A DNA stretch of 14,343 nucleotides from a virus: UHGV virus genome UHGV-1692207, one strand, 5' to 3'. The position numbers were made by a program, and so were the translations under genes. Shown here in pieces: positions 1-2,121 of the stretch (its first letter is position 1; every line of letters starts with the position of its first letter). The notes under the pieces were generated by a model. The model worked only from the letters and a program-made list of their open reading frames with translations, was not told the DNA's origin and did no database searches.

Positions 1-2
1 AC

Positions 3-188
3 CGGGAAATCTTCAGGGAGTTTAACGGACGCAACCACCACGAACTGGCCCGCAAGTTTGGTGTTTCGCTTCAGTGGGTCTACAGCGTGGTTAAGCGGGT
101 CAGAAAAGAAGAACTGGATCGGATGCAGGGCAGGTTGTTTGATGAAGATCTGCCAGAGGAGACGAAAGACGTTAACAAATCCAGATAA
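3..188 (+). CDS. Mor/C-family phage transcriptional activator, C-terminal fragment (5' end outside window)
   Basis: Open frame from the window edge to TAA at 186-188 (missed by the ORF track, which needs a Met). Translation ...EIFREFNGRNHHELARKFGVSLQWVYSVVKRVRKEELDRMQGRLFDEDLPEETKDVNKSR matches from memory the C-terminal helix-turn-helix region of Mu Mor (dFNGRN..EL...yGV....vY...rR.R pattern). An intrinsic terminator follows. Confidence 0.55.
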   Translation, partial: REIFREFNGRNHHELARKFGVSLQWVYSVVKRVRKEELDRMQGRLFDEDLPEETKDVNKSR

Positions 189-232
189 TTCCTGCTTGTT
201 AAAGTCCTTTCAAAAATCTCCTTATTGTATAA

Positions 233-264
233 AAGCACGGTAGACCCCTTACCGTGCTTTTTTT
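233..264 (+). terminator. Rho-independent terminator downstream of the Mor/C-like gene
   Basis: Perfect 9-bp stem AGCACGGTA (234-242) / TACCGTGCT (250-258), 7-nt loop, followed directly by a run of six T (259-264). Confidence 0.6.
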
Positions 265-302
265 ATGCTCTCTCTTTAGTATTCAGGATGCAGGGAGAAA
301 AT

Positions 303-935
303 ATGTTTGACGTTTCGTTGTTAAATCTGCCATGGGCAACACTGGTGACCCTGACCAGTGGCTATATTGGGTATTTTATTGCGAATGTGGGACTGAAGGA
401 TCACCACAAGCCCATTGAGGTGACTTTTTCTTCGCTGATTTTTGGCCTGACAGCAATGATGGCTTACCAGGCTGTTATGTGGGCAGGTCTGAATGCCTGG
501 CTGGCAACACCACCAGCACTTCTGTGTGCCGTTACATGCGGTGCGTGGTGGCGCAGGTACGGTCGCAAATGGATGTACAGATTACTGTGGAATAATGATG
601 TTTCATGGTCTGACGATACCAGCTCAGCATGGCAGGCAATGTTTGATCAAACAGGCTTCAGCGTTACCGAGGTCAGAGTGATTCTTCGCGATGGTTCCGG
701 TATGATGTCACGGCTGCCAGGGAACTTTGAAGAGTGGCCTAACGGTCCGTTTACCCTGGGGAATAAAGGCGATATGGTTCTTTACGTCACGCACAGCAGC
801 CCTTCAGGCAGTAACGAATGGGAAGAGTATAAAGGCGTGGTTGATAAGTACTGGGGAGCTCTGGCAACCTATATTCCAGCAGATCAGATTGCCAGAGTGG
901 AGATCAGGCGCGTTCGTGCAACGAACGATGAATGA
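303..935 (+). CDS. Hypothetical inner-membrane protein: three predicted N-terminal transmembrane helices plus a ~125-aa soluble C-terminal domain; function unknown (candidate phage moron)
   Basis: ATG at 303 preceded by AGGGAG (292-297) with 5-nt spacing; the longer ORF-track start at 225 would begin inside the upstream terminator. Hydrophobic stretches at about residues 9-31, 36-61 and 65-83, followed by a positively charged RRYGRKWMYR segment, then a hydrophilic domain. I recognise no family by eye. Confidence 0.7.
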   Translation: MFDVSLLNLPWATLVTLTSGYIGYFIANVGLKDHHKPIEVTFSSLIFGLTAMMAYQAVMWAGLNAWLATPPALLCAVTCGAWWRRYGRKWMYRLLWNNDVSWSDDTSSAWQAMFDQTGFSVTEVRVILRDGSGMMSRLPGNFEEWPNGPFTLGNKGDMVLYVTHSSPSGSNEWEEYKGVVDKYWGALATYIPADQIARVEIRRVRATNDE

Positions 936-938
936 TGT

Positions 939-1100
939 TTATTTTTTCCCTGGGGCAGGGGCTGCCGGCATAGTGGTTTTATTGGCAGAGGAAGACGATT
1001 CTCCTTTTCTACCGGAATCGCGCTCGAACGTCACGATGTGCTTGCTTTTGGGCTTTTCTGAGTAATCCAGGCTATCATGCTTATTGTTTTGAGTAGTCAT
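939..1100 (-). CDS. Small hypothetical hydrophilic protein (53 aa, Lys/Ser/Thr-rich), convergent with the membrane protein gene
   Basis: Minus-strand ORF, ATG at 1100 to TAA at 941-939, translating MTTQNNKHDSLDYSEKPKSKHIVTFERDSGRKGESSSANKTTMPAAPAPGKK. AAGGA Shine-Dalgarno 8 nt upstream of the ATG; sigma70-like promoter about 40 bp further upstream. Below the 60-aa ORF-track cut-off. An in-frame alternative ATG at 1109 has a poorly spaced SD. Confidence 0.35.
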   Translation of the reverse strand: MTTQNNKHDSLDYSEKPKSKHIVTFERDSGRKGESSSSANKTTMPAAPAPGKK

Positions 1101-1143
1101 TGGAATCATCCTTTTTGTTGCGGGTCATGTTTCAGCAAACTCG

Positions 1144-1173
1144 ATTCTAAGTTGCCAGGAAGGATGATTTCAA
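1144..1173 (-). promoter_or_regulatory. Putative sigma70 promoter for the small minus-strand ORF
   Basis: On the minus strand: -35 TTGAAA (complement of 1168-1173), 18-bp spacer, -10 TAGAAT (complement of 1144-1149). Each hexamer matches consensus at 5 of 6 positions. Predicted start near 1137, giving a ~37-nt leader. Confidence 0.3.
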
Positions 1174-1317
1174 TGCCCGACTTATCTATCGTATAGCGGA
1201 AAAGAATTTCAGTTCTGTTCACCAGAACCCATGTTAACCCACTCCAATTCGTTATTTATCTCACGGATCCCCCTTCATTTATCTCATGTCTGATCACTCA
1301 CCCTGCTGAAAGATGAA

Positions 1318-2121
1318 GTGGTGATGCGCCAGGAAGCCACGGTGATCACCGTTGGTGGTTCCGACTACAAAAAACTGGTGAATCTGGGCGGCACGGCTTC
1401 CGGATGGGTTGGCGAGACTGACGCGCGCTCCCAGACTGCCACCTCAAAACTGGGCCTGATTGAACCTTTCATGGGGGAAATCTACGGTAACCCGCAGGCC
1501 ACCCAGAAAATGCTGGATGATGCCTTTTTCAACGTGGAAGCATGGATCAACAGCGAGCTGGCAACCGAATTTGCCGAACAGGAAGAAATTGCCTTTACCA
1601 CCGGCGATGGTACCAAGAAGCCGAAAGGGTTCCTGGCGTATGAATCCACTGATGAAACCGATAAGGTCCGGGCGTTCGGCAAACTTCAGCATATTGTATC
1701 CGGCGAAGCGACGGCGGTGACCGCAGACGCCATTATCAAACTGATTTACACGCTGCGTAAGGCACACCGCACTGGCGCGAAGTTCATGATGAACAACAAC
1801 AGCCTGTTTGCCATCCGTCTGCTTAAAGACAGCGAGGGTAACTATCTGTGGCGTCCGGGGCTGGAACTGGGGCAGCCGTCCTCTCTGGCGGGTTACGGTA
1901 TCGCTGAAAACGAACAGATGCCGGATATCGCCGCTGATGCGAAAGCCATTGCATTTGGTAACTTCAAACGGGGTTACACCATCGTTGACCGTATCGGCAC
2001 CCGCATTCTGCGTGACCCGTACACCAATAAACCGTTTGTCGGTTTTTATACCACCAAGCGCACCGGCGGGATGCTGGTCGATTCGCAGGCCATCAAACTG
2101 CTGAAGATTGCAGCGGCGTAA
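1318..2121 (+). CDS. Major capsid protein, HK97 family, C-terminal ~2/3 only; probable 5'-truncated remnant
   Basis: C-terminal region (GYGIAENEQMPD...FGNFKRGYTIVDRIGTRILRDPYTNKPFVGFYTTKRTGGMLVDSQAIKLLKIA) resembles the HK97 gp5 A-domain/C-terminus as I recall it; a TGDGT motif sits near residue 97. The frame is open only from the TGA at 1291-1293. Only a GTG (1318) or an ATG (1324) without a convincing SD is available as start. The ~130 aa that would carry the delta domain and N-arm are absent, and upstream sequence is non-coding. Confidence 0.7.
   Translation: MVMRQEATVITVGGSDYKKLVNLGGTASGWVGETDARSQTATSKLGLIEPFMGEIYGNPQATQKMLDDAFFNVEAWINSELATEFAEQEEIAFTTGDGTKKPKGFLAYESTDETDKVRAFGKLQHIVSGEATAVTADAIIKLIYTLRKAHRTGAKFMMNNNSLFAIRLLKDSEGNYLWRPGLELGQPSSLAGYGIAENEQMPDIAADAKAIAFGNFKRGYTIVDRIGTRILRDPYTNKPFVGFYTTKRTGGMLVDSQAIKLLKIAAA

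Follow-up and report, generated by a model that had tools for sequence, protein, structure and literature searches.

A two-gene cargo cassette of a predicted inner-membrane protein and a proline-rich mini-protein near the right end of a BcepMu-like prophage

The gene at positions 303 to 935 of the UHGV virus genome UHGV-1692207, a stretch of 14,343 nucleotides (nt) that will be referred to as the window, encodes a predicted inner-membrane protein of 210 amino acids (aa), and it is one half of an autonomous two-gene cargo cassette, or moron, that occupies positions ~262 to 1180, between the terminator that follows a Mor-family gene and the right terminus (attR) of a BcepMu-like transposable prophage. 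The other half is a convergent gene for a hydrophilic, disordered and proline-rich mini-protein of 53 aa, a conserved and seemingly obligate partner that was missed by the initial annotation, in which the 210-aa gene was treated as a lone effector. While the gene family, the carrier and the moron status all belong to ordinary phage biology, the conserved two-gene unit, with one or more mini-proteins bearing a PPxPKK-type tail, appears to be the undescribed part, and no description of such a unit was found in the literature beyond a proteomic hint from a single species (PMC10433244). Tentatively, the sequences of the two products may be read as those of a membrane-acting conflict cassette, working by exclusion, by abortive infection or in a toxin-antitoxin-like manner, in which the docking of the mini-protein on a putative small beta-barrel of its partner would serve as the regulator. 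The elements of the two genes are as follows.

303 to 935, forward strand: gene of the 210-aa inner-membrane protein (the big gene), with an ATG start and a TGA stop.
293 to 297, forward strand: Shine-Dalgarno sequence GGGAG upstream of the 210-aa gene, at 5 nt from its ATG, read from the sequence.
939 to 1100, reverse strand: gene of the 53-aa hydrophilic Pro/Ser-rich mini-protein (the mini-gene), with the product MTTQNNKHDSLDYSEKPKSKHIVTFERDSGRKGESSSSANKTTMPAAPAPGKK.
1109 to 1113, reverse strand: Shine-Dalgarno sequence AAGGA of the mini-gene, read from the sequence.
C-terminal peptide of the mini-protein: TTMPAAPAPGKK.

The open reading frame (ORF) of the 210-aa gene and its own Shine-Dalgarno sequence, both of which had been proposed in the initial annotation, were confirmed. 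The 210-aa protein matches the hidden Markov model (HMM) of PHROG 12870 over its entire length (E 7.6e-134, residues 1-210 of 210), and the mini-protein, which is annotated in RefSeq, does the same with PHROG 15726 (E 1.2e-41, residues 1-53 of 53), both families being labelled 'unknown function'. A search of a set of 5.8 billion proteins returned 72 homologues of the 210-aa protein at E<=1e-3, and a profile of 30 homologues matched 522 clusters (formed at 50% identity), nearly all of them of 185-250 aa and matched end to end. Given the PHROG 12870 match, the 72 homologues and the 522 clusters, the frame at 303 to 935 is no chance ORF.

The mini-gene lies tail-to-tail with the 210-aa gene, with the stop codons only 3 nt apart, and the presence of such a partner was surveyed in 16 genome loci and 39 viral contigs, as well as in further contigs reached through exact protein look-up (individual loci are designated by the letter L). 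In about 30 distinct lineages, the big gene is adjoined or slightly overlapped at its 3' end by an equivalent hydrophilic ORF of 33-66 aa. These lineages include Escherichia, Citrobacter, Salmonella, Serratia, Symbiopectobacterium, Bradyrhizobium, Afipia, Devosia, Ochrobactrum, Ensifer-type phages, Rhizobiaceae and Allosphingosinicella, and the pair is found mainly in the Enterobacterales and the Alphaproteobacteria, plus one cyanophage. Among the surveyed loci, an intact big gene with no recognisable mini-gene beside it was found only in L015/16/52 (insect symbionts), L050 and L055. The pairwise dN/dS ratios of the mini-gene (nonsynonymous to synonymous substitution rates) range from 0.05 to 0.25, at saturated synonymous sites (dS), and the mini-gene is thus under purifying selection at the level of the protein.

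The 210-aa protein had originally been assigned to no recognised structural family, which holds for the lysis, structural, housekeeping and known defence families, none of which gave a confident match, and does not hold for PHROG 12870, of which the protein is a member, nor for DUF6338, of which it is a borderline relative. Pfam returned no match to it at E<=1, and so none to any superinfection-exclusion or holin family, and NCBIfam returned no match to either protein of the cassette. The 210-aa protein itself falls below the gathering cut-off of Pfam DUF6338 (PF19865), which is 26.5 bits, while homologues that are 54-57% identical to it match this model co-linearly, at positions 54-144 of 205, with 23.9-28.5 bits. 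At E<0.01, DUF6338 was matched by 13 of the 30 close homologues and by 5 of the 26 distant ones. Like the members of DUF6338, the 210-aa protein is a membrane protein of ~200 aa with N-terminal transmembrane (TM) helices, three of which are predicted, and these comparisons place it as a borderline sister of DUF6338, itself a family without known function. The profile search against the PDB sequences gave only noise (RRP4 and ATP synthase c, with E about 0.6-0.8), and the predicted viral structures of BFVD yielded one full-length relative, which is uncharacterised, followed by weak matches of the TM part to LydA-type holins with three TM helices (E 0.02-0.5). Nothing specific was found in the literature on the RefSeq protein accessions, the PHROG identifiers or the exclusion genes of Mu-like phages.

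In the AlphaFold2 model of the 210-aa protein, which has a mean predicted local distance difference test (pLDDT) score of 83, helices at residues 11-28, 37-60 and 65-97 are followed by a beta-rich domain that extends to residue 205. Residues 1-97 are predicted to form three TM helices, and residues ~98-205 are tentatively assigned to a small cytoplasmic beta-barrel of the Sm/SH3-like type. The lysine and arginine (K/R) residues number 0 in the N-terminus, 2 in loop 1, 0 in loop 2 and 5 after TM3, and this distribution, together with the hydropathy, predicts an N-out/C-in topology, which would place the soluble domain in the cytoplasm. The arrangement that had been proposed from the sequence, of three N-terminal TM helices and a cytoplasmic soluble domain, is thus supported by these predictions.

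Conserved polar residues lie inside the TM helices. Across the wide family, the near-invariant positions are occupied by Gly, Pro and aromatic residues, and also by a single Asp and a single Arg at the cytoplasmic border of the membrane, and no catalytic constellation is kept, with the near-invariant residue types arguing for a structural, binding or pore-forming protein rather than an enzyme. The idea of an enzyme based on S101, D104, H35 and H164, which are kept among close homologues, was rejected, since these residues are not kept across the wide family. The enteric alleles of the gene are mosaic, given that the identities of the TM and barrel parts correlate at an r of only 0.10. The divergence of the mini-protein in these alleles tracks that of the barrel (r 0.54) more than that of the TM part (r 0.20), which would be expected from physical linkage, and would also fit a single functional unit made up of the barrel and the mini-protein.

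In E. coli, the 210-aa gene is repeatedly found in truncated or frameshifted form (P0004, P0020, P0056, P0061, P0064 and P0065), one of the truncated alleles being a 125-aa form that is present on 20 contigs. These broken alleles may reflect either a cost of carriage or ordinary prophage decay.

The mini-proteins can be aligned with one another, sharing an N-terminal M[TS]xKxN, followed by the motif [DE][YF][ST]ExPK in the enteric bacteria and by one to three copies of NYxPxT in the alphaproteobacteria. Their extreme C-termini are rich in proline and basic, as in PAPGKK (in the window), PPAPLGKK, PPLPLKKK, PPPSPKKK, PPPPKK and PPKPKK. Class II ligands of SH3 domains follow the pattern PxxPx[KR], which is fitted by the tails PPPSPK, PPLPLK and PPPPKK. 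A profile search with the mini-protein found 28 database proteins, all of them 'hypothetical' and none with any Pfam domain.

DUF6338 was found to be mentioned in one paper only, on the proteogenomics of Pseudomonas stutzeri ATCC 14405 (PMC10433244), where digest-free mass spectrometry detected three novel proline-rich proteins directly downstream of the DUF6338 gene Pstu14405_RS12030, the mini-proteins ending in PPPPKK being seen with 44-114 spectra. Two of the reported sequences, MVSSPGSGVQTNGANPPAPANVRPAMAPTAPPPPKK and MTKKIGGNPGSPVQGGVNKETTSQRPSAPPSAPPPPPKKGG (PMC10433244), have the same type of tail as the mini-proteins of the surveyed loci. While the authors of that study considered these proline-rich proteins not to be conserved beyond P. 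stutzeri (PMC10433244), mini-proteins of this type are, on the comparison of their sequences, conserved beyond this species at the level of the motif. Synechococcus phage Ssp-JY41 has three unannotated small ORFs in tandem (L072 425-854, record 19924-20353), which end in PPPPKPKR, PPPPKPKR and PPPPKR, and a homologue of the big gene at record 744..1, which is convergent with them across the junction of the linear record. Across the family, the copy number of the mini-gene thus ranges from 1 to 3, and its orientation relative to the big gene is convergent in the window and co-directional in P. stutzeri. Given that copy number and orientation vary while the association holds, the link between the big gene and the mini-gene is at the level of the protein, and not solely that of an antisense RNA.

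A DUF1156 methylase accompanied by an SNF2-helicase/PLD pair presumably resembles a defence locus of the DISARM type. In P. stutzeri (CP036186.1, 2646334-2667116), the DUF6338 gene and its three mini-genes lie ~14 kb from a DUF1156 adenine methylase and such an SNF2-helicase/PLD pair (PMC10433244 supplement), and this region may be a defence island.

The abundance of these small products also raises a very unlikely alternative, in which the mini-proteins would themselves be the effectors, either as peptides that target the ribosome or chaperones, in the manner of proline-rich antimicrobial peptides, or as a secreted or competitive factor, and the membrane protein would export them, act as their receptor or confer immunity to them. 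It is the mini-proteins that are abundant, and they come in one to three tandem copies; the antimicrobial-peptide reading was raised by the authors of the proteomic study themselves (PMC10433244). Moreover, a variable N-terminus joined to a conserved extreme C-terminal tail looks like a recognition tag, and the conserved polar residues within the TM helices of the membrane partner could be accommodated in the same way. On the other hand, the mini-proteins have no signal peptide, double-glycine leader, Cys or lipobox, a three-TM protein without an ATPase or energy-coupling partner in the cassette is unlikely to be an exporter, no known bacteriocin, immunity or transporter family was matched in Pfam or NCBIfam, and the barrel is predicted to face the cytoplasm.

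The accessory status of the cassette is supported by its distribution. The 210-aa gene is present in 132 of the 5426 complete E. coli genomes, while a related Mor gene is present in 640 of them. The annotation of the sister prophages in EC958, FAM21845, G5 and DFS.1 shows no gene beyond Mor, the next genes, 150-270 nt further on, being host or other non-phage ones; in the sequence of EC958, the phage terminus is reached 163 nt after the Mor stop. The variable presence among related prophages, for which the initial annotation had proposed a comparison, was therefore found. The same applies to the composition, which had been described as AT-richer than that of the tail operon: the 210-aa gene has 50.1% GC and a GC content at third codon positions (GC3) of 0.52, against 55.8% and 0.65 in the capsid/tail part of the window, and the cargo as a whole (262 to 1140) has 48.5% GC and a GC3 of 0.52, against 54% GC in the early region of the phage, 58% in its late region and a phage GC3 of 0.64-0.65.

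The Enterobacterales loci all place the pair 94-750 nt after Mor in BcepMu-like phages, the transposases of which are only 49-100% identical. Elsewhere, the position of the pair changes. In HK97-like siphophages from a metagenome sample and from Ochrobactrum (L067, 4001-4766, and L074, 7001-7766), the cassette lies between the head-tail connector and head-closure genes, a junction that is a textbook moron position, whereas it is found inside the tail-tip region of the tail module in another siphophage (L075), beside a Dam methylase at a putative prophage end (L077), where four small ORFs separate it from a host tRNA-synthetase gene, and near the integrase gene in the cyanophage. In Bradyrhizobium and Allosphingosinicella, the pair is located in chromosomal islands with no phage genes called nearby, in the latter close to a DUF4411/M78-peptidase pair. 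It is this variation in position, across phage types and islands, that identifies the cassette as a moron.

In some sister prophages, an extra hypothetical gene of 77-78 aa lies between Mor and the cassette (L003 1894-2127 and L004 3194-3430), and the cargo region after Mor therefore varies in more than one way.

The signals that may govern the expression of the two genes are the following.

231 to 268, no strand assigned: GC-rich hairpin with a 5' A-run and a 3' T-run (T-run hairpin at 231-261), 13 pairs, from a terminator scan.
1144 to 1173, reverse strand: sigma-70 promoter of the mini-gene, TTGAAA, 18 nt, TAGAAT, with 10 of the 12 consensus positions.
1098 to 1175, reverse strand: inverted repeat with 16-nt arms (1098-1113 and 1160-1175), pairing the -35/spacer region with the Shine-Dalgarno sequence and AUG of the mini-gene.
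1211 to 1229, reverse strand: terminator-like hairpin facing inward from the phage end, by consensus match only.

The first hairpin has the make-up of an intrinsic terminator and is read as that of the early operon, forming the left border of the cargo. In the window and in 10 other enterobacterial loci (L003, L004, L045, L011, L042, L017, L012, L013, L014 and L016), a hairpin precedes the big gene by 35-45 nt, with its structure and position kept, but not its sequence, the stem variants being GCACGGT/ACCGTGC, GCGCAA/TTGCGC and CACAGTGG/CCACTGTG. The A-run and T-run that flank the stem suggest that it may also be bidirectional, stopping the antisense transcript of the mini-gene. Both hexamers of the mini-gene promoter are kept in the window and in L003, L011, L017, L012, L013 and L053, in which the spacer and leader have diverged, and variants are found in L014 (-10 TAGAGT) and L056 (-35 TTGTAA), with a spacing of 17 or 18 nt across the loci. 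No sigma-70 promoter was conserved or recognised between the hairpin and the ATG of the big gene. From signals of this kind, we infer that the mini-protein is probably constitutive and abundant, and the 210-aa product scarce, with a rise of the latter only upon firing of the surrounding operon or upon a failure of mini-gene expression.

The inverted repeat is kept in six diverged enteric loci, with only one compensatory pair. Its pairing is possible only in transcripts that start beyond the phage end and read into it, which would make the translation of the mini-protein independent of the site of insertion. An apparent insulation of the mini-gene from read-in transcription suggests that fine control of dosage matters, and this has a bearing on a quite unlikely alternative, in which the cassette would be a factor of lysogenic conversion outside phage conflict, with the membrane protein altering the envelope or the physiology of the host (stress tolerance, transport or signalling) and the mini-protein acting as a dosage regulator. 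The wide occurrence of the cassette in soil and symbiotic Alphaproteobacteria and in chromosomal islands would fit such a role, as would the lack of any match in the defence library, but no similarity to a transporter or sensor rises above noise, and in most of the readable loci the carrier is a temperate phage, with the cassette at classic moron sites.

The orientation of the genes is relevant to a further, unlikely alternative, in which the 210-aa protein would be an accessory of the lytic cycle, either holin-like or antiholin-like or an exclusion factor during lytic growth, turned on by transcription of the phage operon and silenced in the lysogen by the mini-protein and the antisense transcript. 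In every phage context examined, the big gene is co-oriented with the operon and the mini-gene is antisense to it, and in L050, L051 and L053 the ATG of the big gene overlaps the stop codon of an upstream ORF that follows Mor (TGAATG). In addition, the predicted N-out/C-in topology with three TM helices is that of the class I holins, and the LydA-type holins mentioned above are the best BFVD matches of the TM part. However, this likeness is weak (TM-score about 0.3 on the query) and would be expected of any bundle of three membrane helices, the carrier already has a cassette with a putative holin and a transglycosylase elsewhere, and most of the closely related E. coli prophages do without the gene. 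Nor is the timing conserved, since the pair belongs to the early operon in Mu-like phages and to late operons in HK97-like phages; the pair is also found in islands with no phage genes called nearby, and the mini-proteins of P. stutzeri are abundant in uninfected cells (PMC10433244).

Given that the cassette is carried as a moron in many temperate phages, a role in exclusion, abortive infection or stabilisation is the most likely one, and the conflict cassette favoured here could operate in the following manner. In the lysogen, the mini-protein would be made constitutively and in excess, while the 210-aa protein would be made at a low level, through terminator read-through or from the surrounding phage operon. 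The polyproline/Lys tail of the mini-protein would dock on the beta-barrel, holding the three-TM module inactive. The ratio between the two might then be shifted by the shut-off of host transcription by an infecting phage, or by strong converging phage transcription, and the loss of the mini-protein or an excess of the membrane protein would lead to an action at the inner membrane, which might be permeabilised in the manner of a holin or closed to incoming DNA. Exclusion, abortive infection or a post-segregational stabilisation of the toxin-antitoxin type would result.

Several observations weigh against this conflict cassette. No family of PADLOC-DB v2 matched either protein at E<=1, and no defence, toxin-antitoxin or exclusion match was obtained in PADLOC, Pfam or NCBIfam, just as Foldseek found nothing significant for the 210-aa protein in the PDB. 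The tail of the mini-protein of the window, PAAPAPGKK, follows the PxxPxK consensus only loosely, and a search for natural fusions of the two proteins gave none, with no longer family member ending in a polyproline/Lys tail. The overlap with the upstream ORF and the co-orientation with the operon fit a lytic-cycle role equally well. Finally, the decay signature of a toxin-antitoxin pair is ambiguous in this cassette, given that the mini-gene is intact beside a broken big gene in L022, L023 and L025, while the reverse is seen in L015/16/52, L050 and L055.

A broader proposition can also be put forward from the sequences, one that is possible but doubtful when all of its parts are taken jointly. 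It holds that a DUF6338-like protein with three TM helices and a small beta-barrel, together with one to three EF-P-dependent mini-proteins with PPxPK(K/R) tails, would constitute an unrecognised two-component membrane system, representing a new class of exclusion, abortive-infection or addiction system. In the same proposition, the disordered mini-protein would gate a holin-like or channel-like effector through a docking site of the SH3/Sm type, and the system would have been spread by temperate phages through at least the Gamma- and Alphaproteobacteria, as well as one cyanophage.

As regards the carrier, positions 1 to 1296 of the window are the right end of a BcepMu-like transposable prophage that is inserted into the capsid gene of a second prophage, and the relevant features outside the cassette are these.

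3 to 188, forward strand: 3' end of a gene for a Mor-family activator, which closes the early operon of the BcepMu-like prophage.
1254 to 1296, forward strand: right terminus (attR) of the transposable phage, with two direct ATTTATCTCA repeats, 23 nt apart.
1297 to 2121, forward strand: 3' two-thirds of the HK97-type major capsid gene of the second prophage, outside the cassette.

When positions 1 to 1400 of the window were compared by megablast with the 5426 complete E. coli genomes, more than 100 genomes matched positions 1 to 1296-1302 at 99-100% identity, and the flanks beyond 1296-1302 were unrelated between genomes (fliC, yfaV, flgA, clbG, malZ, yeiB, rstB and others). Because the shared identity stops there and the flanks differ, position ~1296 is the end of an element that inserts at random. 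None of the best-matching complete E. coli genomes listed spans the junction at 1291-1297, the matches stopping at 1296-1302. The phage end reads TGATCA at 1291-1296, i.e., with a terminal CA-3', a terminus of the same type is found in the insertions of L003 and EC958, and the ATTTATCTCA repeats are candidate subterminal motifs for binding of the transposase.

The rest of the element can be read in strain KE50, in which the DNA identical to the first gene of the window is labelled in RefSeq as a Mor transcription activator family protein, and the translation of this frame in the window ends in DVNKSR before the stop. To the left of the cassette in KE50, lysis and head genes on the opposite strand are followed by a helix-turn-helix repressor and then, rightward, by an rve-domain transposase, an ExeA-like (MuB-type) ATPase, Gam, DUF2786, gp16 and Mor; beyond Mor, the element finishes with the 210-aa gene and, on the other strand, the 53-aa gene. 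This order of genes is the BcepMu-type arrangement of a transposable phage, and the corresponding traits (the rve-domain transposase, ExeA-like ATPase, Gam, gp16 and Mor) are annotated in L001.

From position 1297 onwards, the sequence is that of a different and common prophage, at 100% identity, which has a capsid of the HK97 type and a contractile tail. The product of 1297 to 2121 matches Pfam Phage_capsid (E 1e-73), and in E. coli ATCC 11775, in which the capsid gene is intact and has 1206 nt, position 1297 of the window aligns with nt 382 of this gene, so that the BcepMu-like insertion inactivates the capsid gene of the second prophage. What the initial annotation had taken for a truncated capsid gene is therefore the product of the insertion of a Mu-like phage into another prophage, and its island of ~1.1 kb between Mor and the capsid is the terminal cargo of that Mu-like phage plus attR. 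The interval (188-1296) and the terminator after Mor do exist, but they belong to an arrangement of two prophages and not to a single island.

A piece of 145 nt close to attR (positions 1143-1287 of the window) is also found, unannotated and with 88-90% identity, in many E. coli chromosomes and large plasmids. In plasmid p1ColV5155 (L073 3501-3644), its neighbours are an IS3 remnant and a truncated LysR gene, a setting that suggests a relic of the end of a related transposable phage.

Taken as a whole, these results turn a lone hypothetical gene into a defined, portable unit of two genes, whose borders are clear and whose promoter and peptide motif are conserved, and they correct the map of the window to that of one prophage inside another, instead of a single prophage with an island. 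They also connect proline-rich mini-proteins, seen once by proteomics and called species-specific, with DUF6338 and the proteins related to it, a group of more than 500 clusters at 50% identity. Should the cassette protect lysogens or stabilise prophages, it would represent a new membrane-acting mechanism in the conflict between phage and host, and, if the proposed docking is true, it would also provide a bacterial example of a polyproline tail that binds a small beta-barrel.

The cassette can be compared with a number of known systems. Inner-membrane exclusion proteins encoded by morons include HK97 gp15, P22 SieA/SieB and lambda RexB. Like the cassette, each of these is a small autonomous insertion in a phage operon, variably present and of deviant composition, with a product in the inner membrane, but they have no sequence or profile similarity to the protein of the window, which differs from them in having a second component, the proline-rich mini-protein, as well as a predicted folded beta-barrel in the cytoplasm. 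The class I holins, such as lambda S and P1 LydA, share the predicted number of TM helices and topology. The protein of the window, however, is twice their size, has a predicted barrel of 110 residues and matches no holin family, and whereas these holins (about 70-150 aa) sit in the lysis cassette, the gene of the window type lies ~12 kb from the lysis genes in L001.

The MscS-type channels have three TM helices, with the N-terminus outside, followed by an Sm-like beta domain, and Sm-like domains typically form rings. The order of modules is that predicted for the protein of the window, with three TM helices and then a small cytoplasmic barrel. Membership of the MscS family was nonetheless rejected, as there was no match to the MS_channel HMM and no structural match.

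The toxin-antitoxin and abortive-infection pairs with membrane toxins, such as the type I systems of the hok/sok kind and those of the Panacea type, likewise combine a membrane protein with a small, constitutively expressed neighbour. The resemblance of the cassette extends to its carriage on a mobile element, to the antisense overlap that results from convergent transcription and to the occasional decay of the big gene, but its small gene specifies a conserved protein instead of an RNA alone, and the orientation varies across the family.

In IS10, fold-back inhibition silences the transcripts that read in from outside. As in the cassette, the complement of the Shine-Dalgarno sequence and AUG is placed upstream of the gene's own transcription start in both IS10 and IS50. 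The gene protected in these elements is that of the transposase, whereas here it would be the gene of a mini-protein at the end of a transposable phage, with one compensatory pair.

Finally, a parallel to the whole unit is that of DUF6338 in P. stutzeri. The product of Pstu14405_RS12030, like the protein of the window, has about 200 aa, in which the TM helices come first and a soluble part makes up the C-terminal side, and the genes of both types are adjoined by proline-rich mini-proteins, with the ending PPPPKK in P. stutzeri. The arrangement of the partners is what differs, given that three mini-genes are co-directional with the DUF6338 gene in P. stutzeri, whereas a single mini-gene converges on its partner in the window.

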